The notes beneath the pieces are model-generated. The model made no database searches. It saw nothing but the letters and a program-made list of their open reading frames with translations, and was not told where the DNA came from. From UHGV virus genome UHGV-0324630: DNA of 37,666 nt; one strand, written 5' to 3'. Shown here in pieces: positions 6,481 through 36,702 of the stretch. This DNA comes from a virus. The position numbers and the translations under genes are program-made. Positions within the stretch are counted from its first letter, which is position 1; each line of letters opens with the position of its first letter.

Positions 6481-9303
6481 ATGACGGCAGAGTACATCAG
6501 GGACTGGCAACAACCGCGCCACGCAGTGGGGCGTGAAGGAACGGGGATCCCCGCTCCTGAATCTGCGCTTTCCTCCTGGCTGGATGCCTACCGGGCAGAG
6601 AACGAGCGCCGCCAGGAAATGGCTGATGCGGCGTTCTCCGCCACACCGCTGGGCAACCTGATTAATAAAAGCCTGGACGCACAGGAAAAACAGGACAAAG
6701 CCATCACACTGGCAGGAGACGCCAGAAAACAGGCACGCGGCGCGGTGGATGAAGCCATGGCCTCGCTGCGCCTGCTGCCGTCCTATTTGCGCGATCCACT
6801 TATTCGTCACCTCTCCTTCCTGCGCAAAAAACAGGAAGCCGATCGCCGGAAAGGCAAAAAGAGCTGGCAGGCAGAACGCTATGCACGCGGAACCCTGCGC
6901 AAGATATTCGATCGCATAAACCGCACCGACAGCCGCTGGCTGACACCGGGTTATCGCTCCCTTGCCGGACGCGAACGCCTGGACGATTTGCTTTACCTGC
7001 CGCAGCTCAACAAGCACCAGATACAGACGCTGGCTACCATGACGGCGGCGATGTTCAGCAGCACCTTCGAAAAACTCTGCGATGGTTTTGGCGCGACCGA
7101 TGGCGAGCTGACCATGGATGTAACCCTGAAGGCGTATCAGATGCTGGCCCGCATGGCGTTACACCTGCACGCCATGCCTCCACATTATGACGCACTGACA
7201 ACAGACAAAGACCGGAGGAACGAACCGGACACGGAGCTGCTGCCAGGCGCAATCCTTCGCCTGACCTGTGCGGAATGGTGGAAACGCAAACTGTGGCTGT
7301 TACGTTGTGAGTGGCGGGAAGAACAACTTCGCGCCGCCTGTCTGGTTTCCAGAAAAACATCGCCCTATCTGAGCCAGGACGCGTTAAGCGAGTTTCGCGC
7401 ACAGCGCGAGAAAACACGCGATTTCCTGAAAAGTTTCATGCTGGAAAACGAAGACGGGTTCACGATTGATCTCGAGACAGTGTATTACGCGGGAGTAAGT
7501 AACCCGGTTCACCGTAAGGCAGAAATGATGGCCACCATGAAGGGGCTGGAACTTCTGGCCGAAGCCCGTGGCGACAAAGCGGTGTTTCTGACTGTCACCT
7601 GCCCGTCAAAATACCACGCCACAACAGAGAACGGTCATCCGAATCCCAAATGGAACGGGGCCACCATGCGCGACTCCAGCGATTACCTGGTTAACACGTT
7701 TTTTGCGGCGGTCCGCAAGAAACTGAACCGCGACGGCCTGCGCTGGTATGGCATCCGCACGGTGGAGCCTCACCATGACGGCACCGTGCACTGGCATATG
7801 ATGGTCTTTGCTCATCCGGAAGAAATCGACACCATTGTGTCCCACACCCGTGATATTGCCATTCAGGAAGATCGTCACGAGCTGGGTGATGATATTACCC
7901 CACGCTTTAAGGCGGAGTACGTCGACGGCTCAAAAGGCACACCGACCAGCTACATCGCCACCTACATCGGGAAAAACCTGGACAGCCGTGCCGTGGATGG
8001 CATCGACCCGAAAACGGGCAAGCCACGCGTTGACCACGAAACCGGAAAATCAATGGCCGAGAGCGTGGAACGCGCCATCGGCTGGGCGCGCCTTCACCGG
8101 GTCCGCCAGTTCCAGTTTTTTGGTATCCCCTCCCGTCAGGTGTGGCGTGAGCTGCGTCGCCTTGCCAGCCAGATGGCACGCAACCCGGAAGGCCCACAAC
8201 GGCTGAAGGATGACGCAATGGATGCGGTTCTTGCTGCCGCTGATGCCGGATGTTTTGCCACCTACATAGAGAAACAGGGCGGCGTACTTGTTCCACGCAA
8301 GGACTACCTGGTTCGCACCGCCTACGACCTCGCAGATGAACTGAATGATTACGGCGAACAGAGCGTACAGATTTACGGGATCTGGTCACCACTCATCGGG
8401 GAATCCTCTCGTGTGTGCACGCATCCGGATAACTGGAAGCTGGTAAGACGTAAACCGGAAACGGAAGACAGCGCCCGCGAAAATGGTTTTGACCTTCAGG
8501 GCGGCCCTGCCGCCCCTTGGACTCGTGGCAATAACTGTCCCCGTGTACAGGAAACGGACAACAACGGGACAGAACAGCCGGAAGAACGGCCAGCACCGTG
8601 GCCGCAGCTCCCTGACGGCGTTGAAGTGAACGAATGGATGCGCTCACTGAAACGGCACGAACGCCGGGCGCTGATGCGTTCGCTTCGTGACAAACAGGCA
8701 AAAAACAGCAGTGATGAAATGCAGAGCTGGACACAGAGCCGCAAACAGCAGCGGCCTTTGCCTGATAACCACGAATTACTCGCTAAAGAATGGCGGGAGT
8801 CTGCTGAATCTCTCGGCCTGCATATCGGTGAACAACAGATGCAGCACCTGTTACGGGGCGGCAGTCTGTACGTTGACGGCAGCATCATTGCACCGCAGGG
8901 ATTTGAAATTATACGCAAACCGGATACCCGCCCGGACAGCCGAATCACGCAGCTCTGGCAGCGCCTGAGCCGTAATCACGGCGTAAGCAGCACGGAGATC
9001 CGCCATAACCCGGTCGCCAGCTATCTGGCACAGCTGGGGGCATCAGCCCCTGAAGCCGCCGCACGCCTGGCATCCACACTTCAGCAGGACCAGAACACCA
9101 TGAAAACACCCGTTACCGTGCTTTCTGACATGCTGCGCGCCATCCGCGACGCAGAGCACGCACAGAGAATCAGTGAAACCACTGAACGCGCCCGCCGCAA
9201 AGCAGACCTGCTGCGGGGTGGCCTGACCAGTGGAAACAATAAACAGACAGAAACGGGACTCACGAATCCCGTAAATGAGCAAAAAACGCGCAGCGATATA
9301 TGA
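6481..9303 (+). CDS. A: Rolling-circle replication initiation endonuclease (P2 gpA family), with a long C-terminal extension
   Basis: 940-aa ORF; HUH-type motif GTVHWHMMVFAHP and paired-tyrosine motif TSYIATYIGKN typical of P2 A-type Rep proteins. Longer than P2 gpA (about 760 aa by my memory). Confidence 0.9.
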   Translation: MTAEYIRDWQQPRHAVGREGTGIPAPESALSSWLDAYRAENERRQEMADAAFSATPLGNLINKSLDAQEKQDKAITLAGDARKQARGAVDEAMASLRLLPSYLRDPLIRHLSFLRKKQEADRRKGKKSWQAERYARGTLRKIFDRINRTDSRWLTPGYRSLAGRERLDDLLYLPQLNKHQIQTLATMTAAMFSSTFEKLCDGFGATDGELTMDVTLKAYQMLARMALHLHAMPPHYDALTTDKDRRNEPDTELLPGAILRLTCAEWWKRKLWLLRCEWREEQLRAACLVSRKTSPYLSQDALSEFRAQREKTRDFLKSFMLENEDGFTIDLETVYYAGVSNPVHRKAEMMATMKGLELLAEARGDKAVFLTVTCPSKYHATTENGHPNPKWNGATMRDSSDYLVNTFFAAVRKKLNRDGLRWYGIRTVEPHHDGTVHWHMMVFAHPEEIDTIVSHTRDIAIQEDRHELGDDITPRFKAEYVDGSKGTPTSYIATYIGKNLDSRAVDGIDPKTGKPRVDHETGKSMAESVERAIGWARLHRVRQFQFFGIPSRQVWRELRRLASQMARNPEGPQRLKDDAMDAVLAAADAGCFATYIEKQGGVLVPRKDYLVRTAYDLADELNDYGEQSVQIYGIWSPLIGESSRVCTHPDNWKLVRRKPETEDSARENGFDLQGGPAAPWTRGNNCPRVQETDNNGTEQPEERPAPWPQLPDGVEVNEWMRSLKRHERRALMRSLRDKQAKNSSDEMQSWTQSRKQQRPLPDNHELLAKEWRESAESLGLHIGEQQMQHLLRGGSLYVDGSIIAPQGFEIIRKPDTRPDSRITQLWQRLSRNHGVSSTEIRHNPVASYLAQLGASAPEAAARLASTLQQDQNTMKTPVTVLSDMLRAIRDAEHAQRISETTERARRKADLLRGGLTSGNNKQTETGLTNPVNEQKTRSDI

Positions 9304-9348
9304 AGCGCGCACAAAACAGGCAAAAACGGGATTTCAGAATCCCGTAAA
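9251..9348. repeat. Two copies of a ~25-bp dyad-containing repeat (AAACGGGA-N8-GAATCCCGTAAA); candidate parC-like centromere/operator
   Basis: Copy 1 at 9251..9275 (inside the gpA 3' end), copy 2 at 9324..9348 (parM upstream region); each holds an inverted repeat GGGAyT-N4-AATCCC; flanking A-rich context is also similar. Confidence 0.4.
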
Positions 9349-9379
9349 CGATTAATTAATCAACATAAGGAAAAGCGAC

Positions 9380-10339
9380 ATGAAAATTTGTATCGACGAC
9401 GGCTCCACCAACATCAAGCTGGCATGGACTGAGAACGGCGAACGCCGCAACGCCATCAGCCCGAACAGCTTCAAGTCGGAATGGTCTGCGCCGTTCGGTG
9501 GCACGCAGCCCGCGAACTACATGCTTGATGGCGTGCGCTATGGTTTTGATCCTGTCAGCGATCGCTTTGTCCAGACGACCGACACGCAATACCAATACAG
9601 CGATGTGAATGTCATTGCCATTCATCACGCGCTGGTCAAATCAGGCATCACGCCACAGGAGGTGGATGTGGTTGTCACCCTGCCACTGAGCGAGTATTTC
9701 GACACAAACGCACAGCCGGACATGGCCAACATCAACCGCAAAAAAGCGAACGTTATGCGCCCGGTGGAGTACCAGAACGGCAAAGCATTCACTATCCGTA
9801 ACGTACGGGTTATGCCTGAATCTATTCCGGCTGGCTTTAAAGCACTGGCTGACATGAGTCCGTTTGAATCCCTGCTGATTGTGGATTTAGGCGGAACCAC
9901 GCTGGATGTGGCAAAGGTTCAGGGACAACTGGCAGGTATCAGCCAGGTGTTTTGCGATCCACACGTAGGCGTTTCCCTGATGGCCGATGCAGTACTGTCG
10001 GTGATGGCCACTAACGGTATGCGTACCAGTCACCACATCGCCAATACCATTATCGAACATCGCCATGATGAAGCTTGGCTGCGCCAGCACATCCACAATG
10101 ACGCGCATTACGCCAGCCTGATGGCGGTTATTCGTGAAAAGGAAGAAACACTGAAACAACGCGTGATCCGCGCGCTGGCGGGTTTTTCGGGTTACGGGCG
10201 GGTGATGGTTGTCGGTGGCGGAGCGGAGATTGTGGCACCCGCTATCCGCGAAGCCTGCGGGGTTAATGCGACTTTCATCGCGGACGGGGTGCCACAGTTT
10301 GCTCTGGTTAATGGGCTGTACGCAATGGACAAGGAGTAA
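9380..10339 (+). CDS. parM: ParM/StbA-family actin-like ATPase (type II partition NTPase)
   Basis: 319-aa ORF; N-terminus MKICIDDGSTNIKLAW...ISPNSFKSEW...YQYSDVNVIAIHHAL and later PESIPAGF, IVDLGGTTLD, FSGY..VMVVGGGAE align closely with my memory of plasmid R1 ParM (MLVFIDDGSTNIKLQW...ISPNSFKREW...). Confidence 0.9.
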   Translation: MKICIDDGSTNIKLAWTENGERRNAISPNSFKSEWSAPFGGTQPANYMLDGVRYGFDPVSDRFVQTTDTQYQYSDVNVIAIHHALVKSGITPQEVDVVVTLPLSEYFDTNAQPDMANINRKKANVMRPVEYQNGKAFTIRNVRVMPESIPAGFKALADMSPFESLLIVDLGGTTLDVAKVQGQLAGISQVFCDPHVGVSLMADAVLSVMATNGMRTSHHIANTIIEHRHDEAWLRQHIHNDAHYASLMAVIREKEETLKQRVIRALAGFSGYGRVMVVGGGAEIVAPAIREACGVNATFIADGVPQFALVNGLYAMDKE

Positions 10340-10343
10340 ACCA

Positions 10344-10655
10344 ATGACGACACCAACCAGACGGATAAGTTTCTATCTGAAGCCCGCCGCCGTCAAGAAC
10401 GAAGGCGAAGCATGCGCCTGGCTGGACAGCCTTACACCAGAAGCCCGTAAAAACGGCCAACGCGTGGCTTTTCTGGCCGGGCTGGCGCTTCTGAAAATGA
10501 ATCCGGCAGAGGCTTACCGACTGGCAGCATGGGCTGACGATGAGGCGTTATCAGTGACACAAACCAGGACAGAACGCCCCCTGTCACAGCCAGTACCAAC
10601 CGCACAGATAACCAGTCAGATGGCCGGAAATATCAGGGCGTTATTTCCTGAATAA
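10344..10655 (+). CDS. parR: ParR-like centromere-binding adaptor (RHH family)
   Basis: 103-aa ORF from ATG 10344 (AAGGAG RBS); RISFYLKPAAVKNEGEACAWLDSLTPEARKNGQRVAFLAGLALLKMNP and C-terminal IRALFPE resemble R1 ParR (IAFKLNPDV...DSIPQGERSRLNRAALTAGLALYRQDP, LRSLFPKE) from memory. The longer track ORF from 10209 overlaps parM and is probably not the true start. Confidence 0.8.
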   Translation: MTTPTRRISFYLKPAAVKNEGEACAWLDSLTPEARKNGQRVAFLAGLALLKMNPAEAYRLAAWADDEALSVTQTRTERPLSQPVPTAQITSQMAGNIRALFPE

Positions 10656-10663
10656 CACAACGT

Positions 10664-10681
10664 CAGGGCGAGTTCGCCCTG
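10664..10681 (+). terminator. Stem-loop (CAGGGCG-agtt-CGCCCTG) just downstream of parR; possible terminator or stabiliser, no U-tract
   Basis: Perfect 7-bp GC-rich stem read directly from the sequence. Confidence 0.3.
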
Positions 10682-10718
10682 ATCTCCATCTCAGAACATA
10701 AACAAGAAGAGCGACTTA

Positions 10719-11102
10719 ATGAGCAAAATCAACTATCAGGCATTACGTGAACGTTATTCACCTGCACCAGTACCAAAATGCCCTATTTGCGGCGAAGAAA
10801 TGTCAATTCAGCGAATATCTGGAGCACAGGTTGTTTATGCCTGCTCCAGTTATGGTGATGATGGAGATTTCAAAGTTGGTCGAACTCTTGTCGACGAACA
10901 TTATGAAAAATCACGCGTAACAGTGTTGGATGTCGGGGCCCCTGAAGTATTGGCGCTACTTGATTGACTGGAAACCAAAGACAACCGAATCACTGAACTG
11001 GAAAAAATCGCCACTGACTATGCACTTAAATTCCAGAAAGCACAGGACGCATTAAAGTACGCCGCTTTGCTGCATAGCAGGACAGCGCAGCTAAAATACT
11101 AA
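10719..11102 (+). pseudogene. Zn-ribbon/coiled-coil small protein interrupted by an in-frame TGA at 10965..10967 (probable TGG to TGA nonsense change); 82-aa product if terminated
   Basis: ORF 10719..10967 (CPICGEEM...YACSS) stops at TGA, but the same frame continues protein-like for 44 more codons (LETKDNRITELEKIATDYALKFQKAQDALKYAALLHSRTAQLKY) to TAA at 11100-11102. Reading TGA as Trp gives a seamless ...LALLDWLETKDN... junction. Confidence 0.4.
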
Positions 11103-11192
11103 CTTAAAGCGGAAGATTAATACATGGTGAGTCGGGGTAATTTGTTTTTATCCCGACAAATAAACAAAAAAGTGGACTATCTCTGTAGTATC

Positions 11193-11723
11193 TTATTCAG
11201 CATCGTCTCGTGCAGTCTGTGCATACGTCACAACAACGCCCAATGCATTAGTTTTCTTTTCAACATAGATAATATTGTCATATTCATAGTTACCATACGG
11301 ATAGCAAATAAGAATATTTTTATGCAGTTCGGGATCATCAACAAACGCTCCGGAACAGCTTCTTGAACTACCAGATGTATACTCATACGGTGCAACATAT
11401 GATGATGTTACTCCTGGTAAAAAATAAGTCACCATCATAAGAGGGATAATCAGGAATATCCCTGTAAGAATGCAAGAGCCAGCATAAACCTTCAGGTATT
11501 CCGACAGTCCTTTCCAGCCACTTTGCTTCACTACCCCCCTCTTCACCAGAAACAAGGAGAAGAAAAAGGACATACCCATACTACACAAGATGTAATAATT
11601 GGATATACGCGAATTAAGATATGTAATCCTGTAGATATCTGCCCTCCACCAGTAAAAGAGGAAAATAATCCCTAGCACTGAAACAGTCATGCAAATCAAA
11701 TAAGGATATGAATCTTTCTTCAT
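11193..11723 (-). CDS. Integral membrane protein (about 4 TM helices plus a C-terminal soluble region), unknown function; AT-rich cargo gene at the position of the P2 tin/old accessory locus
   Basis: 176-aa ORF; hydrophobic segments LICMTVSVLGIIFLFYWW, YILCSMGMSFFFSLFLV, VYAGSCILTGIFLIIPLMMVTYFL; markedly AT-rich relative to the phage backbone. Confidence 0.65.
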   Translation of the reverse strand: MKKDSYPYLICMTVSVLGIIFLFYWWRADIYRITYLNSRISNYYILCSMGMSFFFSLFLVKRGVVKQSGWKGLSEYLKVYAGSCILTGIFLIIPLMMVTYFLPGVTSSYVAPYEYTSGSSRSCSGAFVDDPELHKNILICYPYGNYEYDNIIYVEKKTNALGVVVTYAQTARDDAE

Positions 11724-11795
11724 GTCTTGCGCTCATTAAAATTTCCCTGCTACGAACAAATTTACCATCCGTTTTTTGCGCAGAAAACAGCACGA

Positions 11796-11828
11796 TGCAC
11801 ACTGCACGATAGTGCACAAATTTGCACA
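11796..11828. repeat. Four helically phased TGCAC(A) repeats in the non-coding region between the cargo gene and portal gene (probable cos/packaging region)
   Basis: TGCAC at 11796, 11803, 11813, 11823, with a fifth at 11895; flanked by TTTTYTGCGC motifs at about 11773 and 11913. Confidence 0.3.
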
Positions 11829-12253
11829 ATTTTTTTGAACGACTTTTTACCCTTCCGCCCCGCATGGCGGCTGGATCCGTCAAGGATCCGTGCGTGCACA
11901 AAAAAAAGCGTTTTTTCTGCGCGCAGGTGACGGGGGAACAGCCCGCGTTTCAGGGGGTAAATAGCATTCCCTGAGCGATGTCGCAGCGACACAACAGAAT
12001 GGCTGTATTTCTCACGCTGAGCGTGAAAAAGACGTGAGGGCTTTTGATTTGATGGGGTAACAGATAAGGCCGCCAAAATCGCACTGAGGCGGCAGGAACA
12101 TGCAGTCAACGCGGTGGGATTGCGTAAGAGTCTGACCGTCGATGATGGCAATAAGCTGGAAGGCGTCGTGAAATTATCTGATTGATACAGGAGCTGGAGA
12201 GTCGGGGCATAAATTTTTTATGCCCCGGCGAAGCAGCAGACAAGCGAAGCGCG

Positions 12254-13300
12254 TCAGGCTGTGGGCTGAGTGTCTAACAGTGCGTAAGGGTTAAAGCGGA
12301 TCACCTCTTCGCCCAGCCAGTCATTGATGTGCTTCATGGCCTCCATGACGGGCATCAGCTCATTAATTGCGTAAACCCGCGCGGCCTTCTCCACATCACC
12401 AAACGCACTTTTTTCGCCCGGCATCGCCCCCATCAGTTGCGGTGGAACGCGGTGCGCAGCCAGCACATCATCACGGGATGCCGCCTTAACATTCATGAAC
12501 TCATCCTTTGCGGTGATCTGCTGGAACGGCAAAATTTGCACCCCTTCTTTGCCCCCGTTGGGCGCATGAATGAGCACGTTTTTAAACGCACCACCACCAC
12601 GTGCCCCCTGTAGCGTTTCTTTCAGTGAGTCCATGCTTTCGCGGTTTACCTGCGCTGCACCGATGTAGATGATGCACCCGGCGTGGGAGCCGTTGTCGTA
12701 GTACAGTTTTCTGAACATGTCCGCCGAATGAGACAGGCTGGCCGAGAGTAATGCACCAAGATATTCCGGCATGCCGTAGATTTCCTGGTTAATATCCGGA
12801 TTCATCAGGTGGCACACTTTGCCAGGGCGAAACTGAAACGCGTCCTTACCATCCTGCACATACCACCATGATTCAAGATCGCTTCCGCGTCGCATGTATT
12901 TCGCCAGGGCGTGCCGTAATTTAAGCGGTTCGCCGAGCATATTGCTTCGAAGCTCAAGGAATGCGTTACCGAACACAAACCAGTCCAGCGCCAGCGCCGA
13001 GAAATCCTGCCGGGAAAGCAGCGGGTGCGGGATGTAGCAACCGAGTAATACATTGCGCTTAAAGTAAAGCGCAGATTGATGCCAGGACGTTTGCCGGGCA
13101 GCTCTTGCCAGACCGTACCAGTCCACCGGGGTTTCATACCACCGCCCGTTATCAGCACAGTACATATTGTCCAGCAGGTCATGCCCGGTCAGGCGGTAAG
13201 GACCATCAAATGTGAATGCACTGAGCGATGATTCTTTCCTGAGCGCATCAGCGAGATCAATGCGTGAACTCATGCGCACTTTTTTATTTTTTCTGCTCAT
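12254..13300 (-). CDS. Q: Portal protein (P2 gpQ-like, PBSX-type portal family)
   Basis: 348-aa ORF directly downstream of and overlapping (TGATG) the large terminase gene on the minus strand; size and position match P2 Q. Confidence 0.88.
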   Translation of the reverse strand: MSRKNKKVRMSSRIDLADALRKESSLSAFTFDGPYRLTGHDLLDNMYCADNGRWYETPVDWYGLARAARQTSWHQSALYFKRNVLLGCYIPHPLLSRQDFSALALDWFVFGNAFLELRSNMLGEPLKLRHALAKYMRRGSDLESWWYVQDGKDAFQFRPGKVCHLMNPDINQEIYGMPEYLGALLSASLSHSADMFRKLYYDNGSHAGCIIYIGAAQVNRESMDSLKETLQGARGGGAFKNVLIHAPNGGKEGVQILPFQQITAKDEFMNVKAASRDDVLAAHRVPPQLMGAMPGEKSAFGDVEKAARVYAINELMPVMEAMKHINDWLGEEVIRFNPYALLDTQPTA

Positions 13301-15051
13301 CAGAACTCCATAACCGTGAAACGCTCGTTTTCTCCTTCGCCGCCAATCGGTTCGTTAATGACAGCAAGCATGGTTGCCCACGCAAGGTCGCCGTGGCTAA
13401 TCCCCCTCGCGCGGTCCGTTTCGTAAGTGATAAAGCCGCCCGGTGTTTTCACCTTACGCACGGCGTTAAAGGCCGCGACCAGCTCGCGTTCGGCGCGATC
13501 GTATTCCCACCGCCCGGCACGCATTATTTGCAGCATTTTCAGTACCAGCGACCGTTTTGATGACAGCGTGAAGGTGTACGGAATAGCTGCAGGGAAAAAC
13601 CGTTTCACTATCTGATAAACAGCCTCCCCGTTCCCGCCCGTCACATCAATGCCGATGTGTTCCACGTTGTAGCGATACGTGAACTCTTCAATGACTCTGG
13701 CCTGTTCTTCAAACTCCAGCCCCTGAACGCGTCGCGTCTCCACCGTTCGAAAACGGCCACCAGGAACAGCCGGAGGAACCACCACGGACACTGCACCGCT
13801 GTCGCCGTTTCCACTGCTGCCGTTTGCGTCATACCCAATCCATACCGGACGATTCCCCATCGGGCGGGGAGCAAAAGGTTTCCAGTCTTTCCAGTCGTCG
13901 TATCCGTCAACACCGCAGCCAATCAGGATATTCAGGTTAAATGCCGATTCCCCTTCGCGAACAAACTCACACATATAGAGATTGAGGAACTCGTCTTCGG
14001 TGTTTTCATCACGGATTTCGTCAATATCGGTGTGTTTCCAGCCGTGATTAACCACATCTTCCAGCGTGACAATTTGCCGCCACGTCCGGTCAGGGCAGAT
14101 AAGCCCGTTATGCAGCGTTTTCCAGTCCACAGAAAAACGCTGGCGTTTATGCGAGGCCTTTTTCTCGTTCCAGCGGTCGCCGTTCCAGTAGGCGTATGCC
14201 TCGTGCGTTTCGGTGGATGGCGTGGAGAAGTAGGTGCGCCGCAGTCCGCTGAGGGTTGCCATAGCGCCAGCCACCTTGCGCAGTTCAGCAAAGCGACTGA
14301 CCCAGAAAAATTCATCAAAATAAAAATTGCCCGTATAGGACTGTGCCGACGCAGCAGAAGTGCCGAGAAAATGCAGCTCTGCGCCGTTGGAGAGGATGAT
14401 TTTATCGCCCCCTTTCAGCTCCACATCAACTTCAGCCGCGGCCTTCTGAATAATGCTTTTAAACTGGAACGCCTGACGACGCGACGCAGACAAAAAAATC
14501 TGGTTACGCTGGTAAGGTTGCGCCACATCGTCACGCAGCGCCATCAGCAGTGCTTCCTGTGCAAAATACCAGGTCGCCCCAATCTGTCGGGATTTCAGGA
14601 TCATCCTGTTACGTATCCCGGCTTCCCTGCAAAGAGTCAGGGAGTCAAACCAGCCCCGCTGATGCCACTCCAGCCTGCTGATGATTTTTTCCCGCAGTGC
14701 GGCAATCTGTTCCGGCGTGAAATGATTTTTAAGTTTTTTCGCCCGGCCTTTCTTTCCTGTGGCCGTCGCATCCGGCTGGCCATCATGCATTTTTTTAAGC
14801 TGCCGGGTCAGCAGGTCTATTTCCTTGAAGTCACCACCTGTTTTATTCTGTTTTTCAGTAAGCTGGATGAGGCGCGCATCGATGGACTGCGTGACACGCT
14901 GCACGGGTGGCGTTTCATCCCACTGGTCGCGTTTTTTCCACGCATAAATCGTGTTCGGGTTTATTCCCATCAGACGTGAGATTTCTGCGGGCGGATAACC
15001 CTGCCAGTAAAGTTGCCGCGCACGCTGGCGCACAAAAGCGTCCTGAATCAT
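13300..15051 (-). CDS. P: Terminase large (ATPase) subunit, P2 gpP-like
   Basis: 583-aa ORF; N-terminal HTH-like segment (RARQLYWQGYPPAEISRLMGINPNTIYAWKKR) followed by an ATPase/nuclease-sized body; divergent from the scaffold/capsid operon as in P2. Confidence 0.9.
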   Translation of the reverse strand: MIQDAFVRQRARQLYWQGYPPAEISRLMGINPNTIYAWKKRDQWDETPPVQRVTQSIDARLIQLTEKQNKTGGDFKEIDLLTRQLKKMHDGQPDATATGKKGRAKKLKNHFTPEQIAALREKIISRLEWHQRGWFDSLTLCREAGIRNRMILKSRQIGATWYFAQEALLMALRDDVAQPYQRNQIFLSASRRQAFQFKSIIQKAAAEVDVELKGGDKIILSNGAELHFLGTSAASAQSYTGNFYFDEFFWVSRFAELRKVAGAMATLSGLRRTYFSTPSTETHEAYAYWNGDRWNEKKASHKRQRFSVDWKTLHNGLICPDRTWRQIVTLEDVVNHGWKHTDIDEIRDENTEDEFLNLYMCEFVREGESAFNLNILIGCGVDGYDDWKDWKPFAPRPMGNRPVWIGYDANGSSGNGDSGAVSVVVPPAVPGGRFRTVETRRVQGLEFEEQARVIEEFTYRYNVEHIGIDVTGGNGEAVYQIVKRFFPAAIPYTFTLSSKRSLVLKMLQIMRAGRWEYDRAERELVAAFNAVRKVKTPGGFITYETDRARGISHGDLAWATMLAVINEPIGGEGENERFTVMEF

Positions 15052-33014: not shown

Positions 33015-33171
33015 AGCTTCAGCCCCTTGTATCCGTTAAATGATTCGGCAACAATCATCACCCACCACGCGCGTAATCTCACCCCTGCGCCGTTCTCCCG
33101 ACCCGGCGACAACAAAAAGCAGTAACCCCCTCCGCACGCACATGCGACCATGCCGCACAGGGAGGGAACAG

Positions 33172-34281
33172 ATGACCGATACCACCATGCAATTGCTCAG
33201 TCAGGGCACAGACCCCGTGAAAATGCCGGATTTTGATATTCTCGCGGAGGGTAAAACGCTGTCAGGCGTGGCAGAGCGCCTGATGAGCCTGTCACTGACC
33301 GACAACCGGGGATTTGAGGCGGACCAGCTCACCATCACGCTGGATGATGCGGATGGTCAGTTGCAGCTACCGCCACGGGGCGCGCGCCTGACGGTTCTCA
33401 TTGGCTGGAAAGGAGAACCGCTGACAGAAAAAGGCACTTACATTGTTGATGAAATCGCTCACGAAGGACCGCCGGACAGGCTGACTGTTTCAGCCAGAAG
33501 CGCAGATTTTCGGGATGAATTTAACGTTAAACGTGAAGTGTCCTGGCATGATGTGACCGTTGAGCGCGTGGTATCCGCCATCGCTCATCGGTATGGTCTG
33601 AAACCGCAAATCAGCGAAATGCTGATGGATATCGAAATCGACCACGCCGACCAGACCGAAGAAAGCGACATGTCCTTCCTCACGCGCATGGCGGAAATGC
33701 TGGGCGCAATCACCACGGTAAAAAGCGGTAACCTGTTATTCATCATGCCCGGCGGTGGCGTGAACGCACAGGGCCAGCCGTTGCCCTCGTTCGCCATCAC
33801 ACGCAGCAGCGGCGATCGCCATCAGTTCCGCATTGCTGACCGCGAAGCGTATACGGGGGTACGCGCTTACTGGCTTGATCTTAATTACGGGAAAAAGAAA
33901 AAAGTCAGCGTGAAACGCCGCAAACCGCCAAAACCCAAAAAGGAGAAAAGCAGCAGCCGTGAAGGTGATTATATGGAAGGCGCAGAAGGCAATGTGTTTG
34001 TGTTACGCAAGACTTATCAGAACGAGCAGGCAGCAAGACGCGCAGCGGCGGCAAAGTGGCAGCAGCTACAACGCGGAGCCGCATCATTTTCCATCACGCT
34101 GGCGCGTGGACGTGCAGAACTCTACCCCGAAATGCATGGCACGGTAACAGGATTTAAAAGCGAGATTGATAATCAGGACTGGATTATTGCAAAAGCCGAG
34201 CACACTATTGATGACAGTGGCTTTACCACACAGCTTGAGCTTGAAGCAAAAATCCCGGAATGGATAGCGGAAACAGAATGA
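33172..34281 (+). CDS. D: Tail/late control protein D, P2 gpD-like
   Basis: Start taken at ATG 33172 (GGAGGG RBS); about 369 aa. The track's upstream extension from 33040 overlaps the sheath-gene upstream region and is rejected. Confidence 0.88.
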   Translation: MTDTTMQLLSQGTDPVKMPDFDILAEGKTLSGVAERLMSLSLTDNRGFEADQLTITLDDADGQLQLPPRGARLTVLIGWKGEPLTEKGTYIVDEIAHEGPPDRLTVSARSADFRDEFNVKREVSWHDVTVERVVSAIAHRYGLKPQISEMLMDIEIDHADQTEESDMSFLTRMAEMLGAITTVKSGNLLFIMPGGGVNAQGQPLPSFAITRSSGDRHQFRIADREAYTGVRAYWLDLNYGKKKKVSVKRRKPPKPKKEKSSSREGDYMEGAEGNVFVLRKTYQNEQAARRAAAAKWQQLQRGAASFSITLARGRAELYPEMHGTVTGFKSEIDNQDWIIAKAEHTIDDSGFTTQLELEAKIPEWIAETE

Positions 34282-34680: not shown

Positions 34681-35820
34681 GTGGGAAACAATAAAGTGAA
34701 ATTAGGAAGAAATGATAAGTGCTGGTGTAATTCAGGACTTAAGTATAAAAAGTGCCATCTTGGTCGAGACCGTGAAACTCCGGTATCCAAAGCCGAGGCA
34801 CTGAAATTTTCAAAGTCTCTCTCGCAGAGAAAGGCATGTTATGCGCCAGCATCCATGCACGAAGATTGTGATAAACGCATCGTTCAGGCGCATACGATAT
34901 CTAAGAGCAGTAGCCTTAAGGCGATCGCCGACTCCAGCAATCACGTCATGGGGGTGATAATGAACTTAGCAAGCCTGATGAGAAACAACGGAAAATGGCT
35001 TCCCGAGAAGATCGGTATCAATCAGGCATCCACTTTTACAGGATTTTGTGCAGTTCATGACAGAATCTTGTTTTCATGCCTAGAGAACGAAAAATTTACA
35101 GGCACGGACGAGCAGTGCTTTGCCTTAATGTTTCGTTCATTGTCTAAAGAAATTTACGCCAAAGAAGGGGGAGTGCTATCTTCCGATTTTGCTAAAAATG
35201 CCGATAAAGGAAAGCTACAAGTTGAACAGTATTATATTCAGAAATTAATCGACCAGCACCAAAGTGGCTTAAATGCAGCAATAATTGAATTAAATAATCT
35301 TAAAACTAGCCTCGACCGCATCCTACTTAGCAGGCAATTTTCAGAAATTGAAAGTGTTATCTTCACTTTTGCAGAGCCTTTACCAATTGTAGTTTCGTCA
35401 ATTCTTTCACCGGAGAGGGATTTCGATGGGACCAAAATTCAGGATTTGAGCGATCTTACAGTGTCGGCGGAACAAGTATGTTTCAATGCTTTTTCCTGCG
35501 GAGGTAAGGGATATGTAGTGTTCAGTTGGCTGAGAACTTCAACAATTATCAGACGTTTTATACGGACACTAATTAAGATCCCGGCTAACAGGATGTTCAA
35601 TACCCTTCTGTATTTTTTCTTCACAAAGGCCGAAAATACATATTCATCCCCTGAGTGGTGGGACAGGCTCAGTGATAAACAGCGAGAGAATATCGGCAAC
35701 ATGATTATGTCAGGGGTTGAATTTTTTGGCAGACCTACATCACAGGTTGATCATTCCGTTGATTATAACGCCGCTGCACTTGAAGAGATAACATGCAGCA
35801 ACAACGAAATTTGCAGCTGA
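34681..35820 (+). CDS. Uncharacterised protein with N-terminal SEC-C-like zinc-binding motif (C-W-C-x8-C-H); AT-rich cargo gene inserted between gpD and ogr
   Basis: 379-aa ORF (GTG start, start uncertain; alternative GTG at 34696); N-terminal KCWCNSGLKYKKCH; rest unrecognised; strongly AT-rich with about 400 bp and about 290 bp non-coding flanks. Confidence 0.65.
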   Translation: MGNNKVKLGRNDKCWCNSGLKYKKCHLGRDRETPVSKAEALKFSKSLSQRKACYAPASMHEDCDKRIVQAHTISKSSSLKAIADSSNHVMGVIMNLASLMRNNGKWLPEKIGINQASTFTGFCAVHDRILFSCLENEKFTGTDEQCFALMFRSLSKEIYAKEGGVLSSDFAKNADKGKLQVEQYYIQKLIDQHQSGLNAAIIELNNLKTSLDRILLSRQFSEIESVIFTFAEPLPIVVSSILSPERDFDGTKIQDLSDLTVSAEQVCFNAFSCGGKGYVVFSWLRTSTIIRRFIRTLIKIPANRMFNTLLYFFFTKAENTYSSPEWWDRLSDKQRENIGNMIMSGVEFFGRPTSQVDHSVDYNAAALEEITCSNNEICS

Positions 35821-36109: not shown

Positions 36110-36370
36110 ATGTTCCGTTGTCCGCTTTGTGGCGCATCTGCCCGAATCCGCACCAGTCGTCCGGAAAACGATTCAAACACTGTGCGGCAAAAGTATTACC
36201 AGTGTAACAACCTGGAATGCGGCGTATGCTTCTCAACACTGGAAGCTTTCCATAAATTCACATCAAAACACGCCTCCGGCGTTCACTCTTCGGAAGGTAT
36301 CCCGTGGCATGAGCTGCCAGCTTCACACAGGGGAAACAATCAGATGAGTTTGCCTTTACCTCAGAATTAA
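36110..36370 (+). CDS. ogr: Ogr/Delta-family zinc-finger late-gene transcription activator
   Basis: MFRCPLCGASARIRTSR...QKYYQCNNLECGVCFSTLE matches the P2 Ogr pattern (MFHCPLCQHAAHARTSR...RYHQCQNVNCSATF, from memory): C-x2-C ... C-x4-C zinc finger. Confidence 0.85.
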   Translation: MFRCPLCGASARIRTSRPENDSNTVRQKYYQCNNLECGVCFSTLEAFHKFTSKHASGVHSSEGIPWHELPASHRGNNQMSLPLPQN

Positions 36371-36561: not shown

Positions 36562-36702
36562 ATGTCGCAAAAATCGCTTACGGCCATCACGTTCTGCGTG
36601 ACGGTAATCCTCATCATCTGGATGCTACACGGTTCGCTGTGTGAAATACGGATGAGCTTCTGGGGAGCGGAGTTTGCGGCGTTCTTACAGTGTAAGCAGT
36701 AA
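36562..36702 (+). CDS. Hok/Gef-family type I toxin (small membrane toxin)
   Basis: 46-aa ORF with AAAGGAG RBS: MSQKSLTAITFCVTVILIIWMLHGSLCEIRMSFWGAEFAAFLQCKQ; N-terminal TM helix then the SLCEIR motif characteristic of Hok/SrnB/PndA; not in the ORF track (below 60 aa). Confidence 0.8.
   Translation: MSQKSLTAITFCVTVILIIWMLHGSLCEIRMSFWGAEFAAFLQCKQ

Follow-up and report, generated by a model that had tools for sequence, protein, structure and literature searches.

A doubly damaged Ead/Ea22-like gene, very probably a pseudogene, in the gpA–gpQ slot of a P88-like Escherichia coli prophage

Introduction

The Ea22 protein of phage lambda is a tetramer with a central coiled coil and a dimeric C-terminal domain (CTD), and it acts in a pro-lysogenic manner (PMC10834534; PMC7093339). 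The CTDs of Ea22 proteins vary among phages (PMC10834534; PMC7093339), and pro-lysogenic activity has been reported for the Ea22 proteins of lambda and Stx phages only (PMC7093339). In P2-like phages, the interval between gpA and gpQ is a hotspot of diversity for which 1,650 gene arrangements have been reported, and P2 itself carries old and tin at this position (PMC9122126).

Here we analyse an Ead/Ea22-like gene that lies in this interval. The window (the whole stretch of DNA that was analysed, 37,666 nucleotides of the virus genome UHGV-0324630) corresponds approximately to one P2-family prophage, with the integrase gene leftmost, followed by gpA, the portal, terminase, capsid and tail genes, gpD and ogr. 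The closest deposited phages are P88-like, namely Xuanwuvirus P884B11 and phage P88. We conclude that positions 10719–11102 are very probably a doubly damaged Ead/Ea22-like pseudogene in the gpA–gpQ slot of a P88-like (Xuanwuvirus) P2-family prophage of E. coli. The locus shares its gpA–gpQ position with the P2-like hotspot, and a cassette swap with sharp homology breakpoints, as found here, is the mode of change expected there. The intact orthologue resembles lambda Ea22 in having an N-terminal region, a long central helix or coiled coil and a C-terminal domain, although for the orthologue this layout is a low-confidence prediction. By contrast, the gene in the window lies between par genes and the portal gene rather than between exo and xis, and, lacking the CTD and carrying a premature stop, it does not have the three-part architecture of lambda Ea22.

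RefSeq annotation by PGAP already labels the locus as a pseudogene. In this respect it does not differ materially from ordinary PGAP-flagged prophage pseudogenes, with which it shares both the label, at the identical RefSeq locus, and the apparent relaxation of constraint. The locus is a clean illustration of how an accessory gene decays step by step in the rapidly changing gpA–gpQ slot, with a domain probably displaced before a nonsense mutation arose. For annotation, 10719–11102 should be recorded as one probable pseudogene, not as a short gene followed by an unexplained open frame. The features discussed below are collected in Table 1.

Table 1 Features of the window, with the evidence for each
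Feature	Position	Strand	Evidence
gpA replication endonuclease, left border of the cargo slot	6481..9303	+	PGAP annotation of near-identical prophage; Pfam Phage_GPA in L003
ParM-like partition ATPase	9380..10339	+	annotation; phrog_691, E 8e-91; control for selection
StbB / Plasmid_stab_B partition partner	10344..10655	+	Pfam PF10784, E 2.2e-24; phrog_2515
Still-translatable 82 codons of the probable Ead/Ea22-like pseudogene	10719..10964	+	PF13935, 64.8 bits; helix predicted from residue 75 (low confidence)
Premature TGA stop	10965..10967	+	ancestral TGG (Trp83); CP024138 alignment, orthologues, genome counts
Stranded in-frame remainder of the ea22-like gene, residues 84–124, predicted long helix	10968..11089	+	BLAST against L003; PF13935 positions 76–111
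712-bp replacement cassette	11090..11801	.	took out the last 72 ea22 codons and 38 bp (BLAST against L003)
Membrane-protein ORF on the cassette, 176 aa	11193..11723	-	phrog_1416, E 2.6e-45
Portal protein gpQ, right border of the cargo slot	12254..13300	-	annotation; Pfam Phage_portal in L003
YecA-family ORF	34681..35820		
ogr	36110..36370		
Hok/Gef toxin gene	36562..36702		

Results

An in-frame TGA divides one reading frame

The ATG at 10719 starts an ORF (10719–10967) of 82 codons that ends at a TGA at 10965–10967, beyond which the same frame runs on for 44 sense codons (10968–11099) before it is closed by a TAA at 11100–11102. The original prediction had described this arrangement, together with the lack of an internal start, and the sequence confirmed it: the frame downstream of the TGA contains neither ATG nor GTG, and its sole start-like codon is a TTG at 11067–11069, 11 codons before the end. 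The program-made ORF listing contained no ORF in the post-TGA frame. Because the chance of 44 open codons is (61/64)^44, or approximately 0.12, the openness of the frame is unremarkable on its own; we regard the extension as real because of its homology, not because of its open length.

The frame resembles Ead/Ea22-like proteins on both sides of the stop

The Ead/Ea22-like profile PF13935 matched the 82-residue product alone with 64.8 bits (profile positions 1–74) and the 44-residue tail alone with 15.6 bits (positions 76–111). When the two were joined through a Trp, the match rose to 96.1 bits (E 3.6e-27, positions 1–110; the cut-off is 27), compared with 109 bits for the intact orthologue P0001. 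The match resumes exactly at the position of the stop, and the tail is therefore a continuation of the same domain. On these profile matches, the gene belongs to the Ead/Ea22-like family (Pfam PF13935). NCBIfam held no family for the three window proteins that were submitted (the repaired Ea22-like remnant, StbB and the membrane ORF), and a sequence search of the PDB with the intact orthologue returned zero matches at E values of up to 1.

The 196-residue orthologue was modelled with AlphaFold2 from a 35-sequence alignment, and the model (mean pLDDT 59) was used for an outline of secondary structure only; a fold search was omitted because a model of such low confidence yields meaningless matches. 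In this outline, a small beta-rich N-terminal domain (approximately residues 19–70) would be followed by a single long helix (75–122) and an alpha/beta C-terminal domain (130–167), with Trp83 near the predicted beginning of the helix. If the helix begins where this low-confidence model places it, the 82 codons cover the Cys-rich N-terminal domain and run 8 residues into the long helix. The predicted N-terminal domain and helix would thus be retained in a 127-residue form of the protein, described below, and the N-terminal domain only in the 82-residue form. Among the members of the Ead/Ea22-like family that were aligned, the C-terminal domains differ.

The sequence had first been characterized as a Zn-ribbon/coiled-coil ORF. 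The first of these labels is merely suggestive. C21 and C24, which make up one CxxC motif, and C42 are invariant in the family alignment and H61 is nearly so, but all of the Zn-ribbon matches in Pfam fell under their cut-offs (E 0.003–0.2) and the confidence of the model is too low to judge geometry. The second label agrees with the predicted helix at residues 75–122, subject to the same low confidence of the model.

A cassette has replaced the end of the gene

Intact orthologues, including P0001, are 196 residues long and occur in a gpA–ParM–StbB–ea22–portal context like that of the window. When the window was aligned by BLAST with one such intact locus (L003), window positions 10301–11089 matched L003 7583–8371 at 95.2% identity, and homology returned at 11802–13398 at 97.3%. 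Between these two blocks, 712 bp of the window (11090–11801) stand in for 258 bp of the intact locus (L003 8372–8629). The cassette contributes the codons L125-K126-Y127 and the TAA at 11100–11102. The view of this frame as a pseudogenised gene stands, but the TAA at 11100 is not its native end, as the last 72 of the 196 residues had already been replaced by the cassette.

The cassette is present at an identity of at least 95% in 77 complete E. coli genomes, in some of them partially, and a version that is approximately 78% identical is present in 83 other complete E. coli genomes; one copy of the latter that was inspected (CP010148) adjoins torI and an IS4 remnant. The intact 3' end of the ea22-like gene was found in 167 genomes. 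In three loci (L002, L004 and L006), the cassette is combined with TGG at codon 83, and PGAP labels the gene 'incomplete; missing C-terminus', whereas the label of the RefSeq locus identical to the window reads 'ead/Ea22-like family protein; internal stop; incomplete; missing C-terminus'. Because alleles with the cassette still carry TGG, we infer that the truncation preceded the nonsense mutation.

These comparisons reveal two lesions. The probably older one is a recombinational swap, in which the 712-bp membrane-protein cassette displaced the final 72 codons and with them the C-terminal domain, leaving a 127-codon ORF that many prophages still have with TGG. The probably younger one is a G-to-A change at 10967 that turned Trp83 from TGG into TGA in one successful prophage lineage. 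Translation now ends after 82 residues, and the following 44 codons are an untranslated leftover without a start of its own.

The membrane-protein ORF on the cassette aligns without gaps, at 79% identity, with the annotated 176-residue protein WP_000711110.1. In other E. coli, the gene for the latter is adjacent to torI and an IS4 remnant. Because of this gapless alignment and the torI/IS4 setting elsewhere, the ORF looks intact and mobile. PGAP calls it 'frameshifted' despite the gapless alignment to WP_000711110.1. An IS1 insertion in the ea22 gene of O139/ETEC genomes was also suspected, but the IS1 lies downstream of the gene, inside the cassette.

The TGA is a derived allele that is found in independent assemblies

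An E. coli prophage that is 98.3% identical to the window (CP024138) has TGG at codon 83. Every close protein orthologue, whether from E. coli, E. albertii or Shigella, carries W83 and continues as LETKDNRI..., and more distant members of the family have E at position 83. A 51-mer centred on codon 83 was found in 210 of 5,426 complete E. coli genomes; 197 of these 210 contain the exact TGG version and 3 the exact TGA version. Given TGG in the orthologues and in most of these genomes, the TGA is a derived allele that arose by a G-to-A transition at 10967. These results bear out the original prediction that the TGA had been a Trp codon and that the cargo gene had suffered a nonsense mutation. 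Orthologues that terminate at the same point and are followed by unrelated sequence were also looked for; none was seen, and the orthologues continue in frame. We considered whether the mutated G lies in a hotspot of Dcm (CCWGG) deamination, but the minus-strand context, CAGCCA, contains no Dcm site on inspection by eye.

A sequencing or assembly error, the true sequence being TGG and the gene uninterrupted, had been put forward together with the nonsense mutation, and the window does differ from the common allele by a single base. However, the TGA is present in three complete RefSeq genomes, the hosts of which are a bivalve, poultry and a human. One TGA-bearing prophage, in CP040263, has 2 mismatches to the window over 37,666 positions and, because of these two other differences, represents a separate genome. 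The exact 82-residue product was found on 297 contigs (NCBI, JGI, ENA and Logan), the index of the public collection places it in 460 blocks, and the TGA also occurs on a diverged haplotype together with A79V (L010–L012). With the TGA recurring in a separate complete assembly and in hundreds of contigs, there is next to no chance that it is an error.

The remnant appears to evolve under relaxed constraint

To compare the remnant with a neighbouring gene, differences were polarised among 13 loci, with the window, L013 and L014 as the window lineage. Private to this lineage, the ea22 remnant has four replacements (G44S, I54V, D74A and A93T) and no synonymous changes, whereas parM has five synonymous changes and no replacements. 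The difference between the two genes gave p = 0.008 in a Fisher exact test, or p = 0.002 when A59V, which is common to the TGA alleles, and W83* were included, the counts being small in either case. With three of the four replacements located before the stop, even the 82 residues that can still be translated look unconstrained. Constraint thus appears to be relaxed on the ea22 remnant relative to parM, although positive selection could also produce such an excess of replacements in these small counts. In the absence of apparent purifying selection on the remnant, we regard it as a pseudogene. Loss of function, like the order of the two lesions, is what we infer from these patterns, and it is possible that the 82-residue product, which keeps the whole N-terminal domain, has residual or altered activity.

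One of the four replacements, D74A, consists of two adjacent base changes at 10939–10940 (GAT to GCC), that is, a multi-nucleotide substitution. Separately, a 111-residue allele of the same gene from Logan (P0147) is apparently frameshifted after ...AELEK, at approximately codon 96, beside an A-run (GAAAAAATC), and continues past the shift as the +1-frame peptide SPLTMHLNSRKHRTH. This frameshift would be an independent inactivation in another lineage.

An alternative reading of the same data is that the truncation was selected: either the 82-residue N-terminal domain or a strongly down-tuned, leaky allele would be advantageous, for example because a costly protein is removed while a binding module is kept, and this would explain why the allele is common. 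The N-terminal domain is indeed complete in the short product, and of the 40 cluster members read, the 82-residue sequence was the commonest, being found on 297 contigs compared with 128 for the 127-residue form. Contig counts are, however, swollen by clonal sampling, and only 3 of the 210 complete genomes have the TGA. The three private replacements within the 82 residues also argue against constraint on the part of the protein that such selection would have kept. A possible second origin of the TGA, discussed below, would favour selection, but a double hit is improbable. Overall, we consider a selected truncation to be a slim prospect, and decay of a pseudogene to be the better account of the remnant.

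The stop may be leaky but is very unlikely to be programmed

A familiar parallel is the coat/A1 readthrough of phage Q-beta, in which an open frame likewise extends past a UGA and Trp is inserted at that codon. The stop of Q-beta is conserved, and its extension is indispensable. Spontaneous readthrough of UGA is driven by the near-cognate tRNA-Trp, and work by Poole et al. from 1995, cited in PMC5373646 as its reference 44, reportedly ranks UGA followed by C as the weakest terminator in E. coli. The base after the TGA in the window is C. As in Q-beta, Trp would be inserted at this position, but only a minority of alleles have the stop, and what follows it is a remnant in decay.

We therefore weighed the possibility that the TGA is recoded, as selenocysteine or by designed readthrough, to give both an 82-residue and a 127-residue product. 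The open frame downstream, the leaky UGA-C context in which tRNA-Trp would bring back the ancestral residue, and the presence of the TGA on a second backbone (L007) all fit this idea. Against it, an Rfam scan of 10600–11900 at E values of up to 10 returned two chance-level matches, neither of them at the stop, and no SECIS element, and the 81 nucleotides at 10955–11035 fold with a minimum free energy of -3.5 kcal/mol, no better than shuffled sequences (z = +0.98), indicating no structure. Moreover, the stop is not conserved among orthologues, given the 197 of 210 complete genomes with the exact TGG 51-mer; replacements lie on both sides of it with no synonymous changes; and the 127-residue form is already without its C-terminal domain. 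Programmed recoding is accordingly very improbable, in agreement with the original prediction, which had ranked stop-codon readthrough below the other explanations.

Incidental readthrough is a separate matter. Because UGA-C is a weak stop and tRNA-Trp would restore the original residue, the TGA allele may be leaky and not null. It is possible that spontaneous readthrough by tRNA-Trp makes a small amount of the 127-residue form, which would still lack the C-terminal domain.

The same TGA occurs on a full-length backbone

A contig assembled in Logan (L007, from ERR4036932) carries the same TGA on a full-length backbone of 196 residues, its positions 2207–2797 being equivalent to the window from 10719 onward. 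Every pairing of TGG or TGA with a full-length or truncated gene, four in all, therefore exists. In L007, the TGA is flanked by private variants at positions equivalent to 10892 (75 bp upstream) and 11010 (43 bp downstream). A variant 82-residue product (P0128) had been shown at three places, but two of these (L008 and L009) are truncations at contig ends, and only L007 has a true internal TGA.

L007 is compatible with a single origin of the TGA only if a short stretch was recombined or the assembly is a mosaic; failing that, the mutation arose twice. In the intact gene, 91 different single-base changes would create a stop, 20 of them transitions, and an independent identical change, as 1 of 91 nonsense changes or 1 of 20 transitions, would thus have a probability of roughly 1–5%. 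For L007, gene conversion over a short tract, or a mosaic assembled from a strain with two related prophages, is at least as likely as recurrent mutation.

One further idea is that the TGA is a selected 'dimmer' allele and not a product of neutral decay, giving mostly the 82-residue N-terminal domain and a trickle of the longer protein. If this were true, the occurrence of the TGA on both truncated and full-length backbones would represent recurrent selection at one codon. We give this idea little credence, much as for selected truncation in general, and retain the pseudogene interpretation. On the latter, the locus has little importance past its correct annotation, and the TGA on two backbones is the only mildly interesting thread.

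The neighbourhood of the remnant

The ParM-like ATPase and StbB (9380–10655) form a plasmid-type partition pair directly after gpA, within a P2-family prophage that integrates; the pair is conserved across P88-like phages. None of four proteins (ParM, StbB, the intact form of the Ea22-like protein and the product of the membrane ORF) matched a PADLOC defence model, so this search gives no indication of a defence role. A promoter scan of 9200–12400 did not find a sigma-70-like site. Between the stop codon of StbB and the start of ea22, positions 10663–10682 form a perfect 8-bp GC-rich hairpin, TCAGGGCG-AACT-CGCCCTGA in the minus-strand reading, which has no clear T-tract on the plus strand.

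Towards the right end of the prophage, the gpD-like ORF (33040–34281) encodes 413 residues in the window, whereas in a near-identical RefSeq record PGAP gives gpD as a 266-residue product (33481–34281) with a small partial pseudogene overlapping its start; this difference may be a start-site or annotation discrepancy. A YecA-family ORF of 379 residues with a SEC-C motif is inserted between gpD and ogr and marks a second cargo position, and a Hok/Gef toxin gene lies immediately past ogr, close to the end of the prophage.
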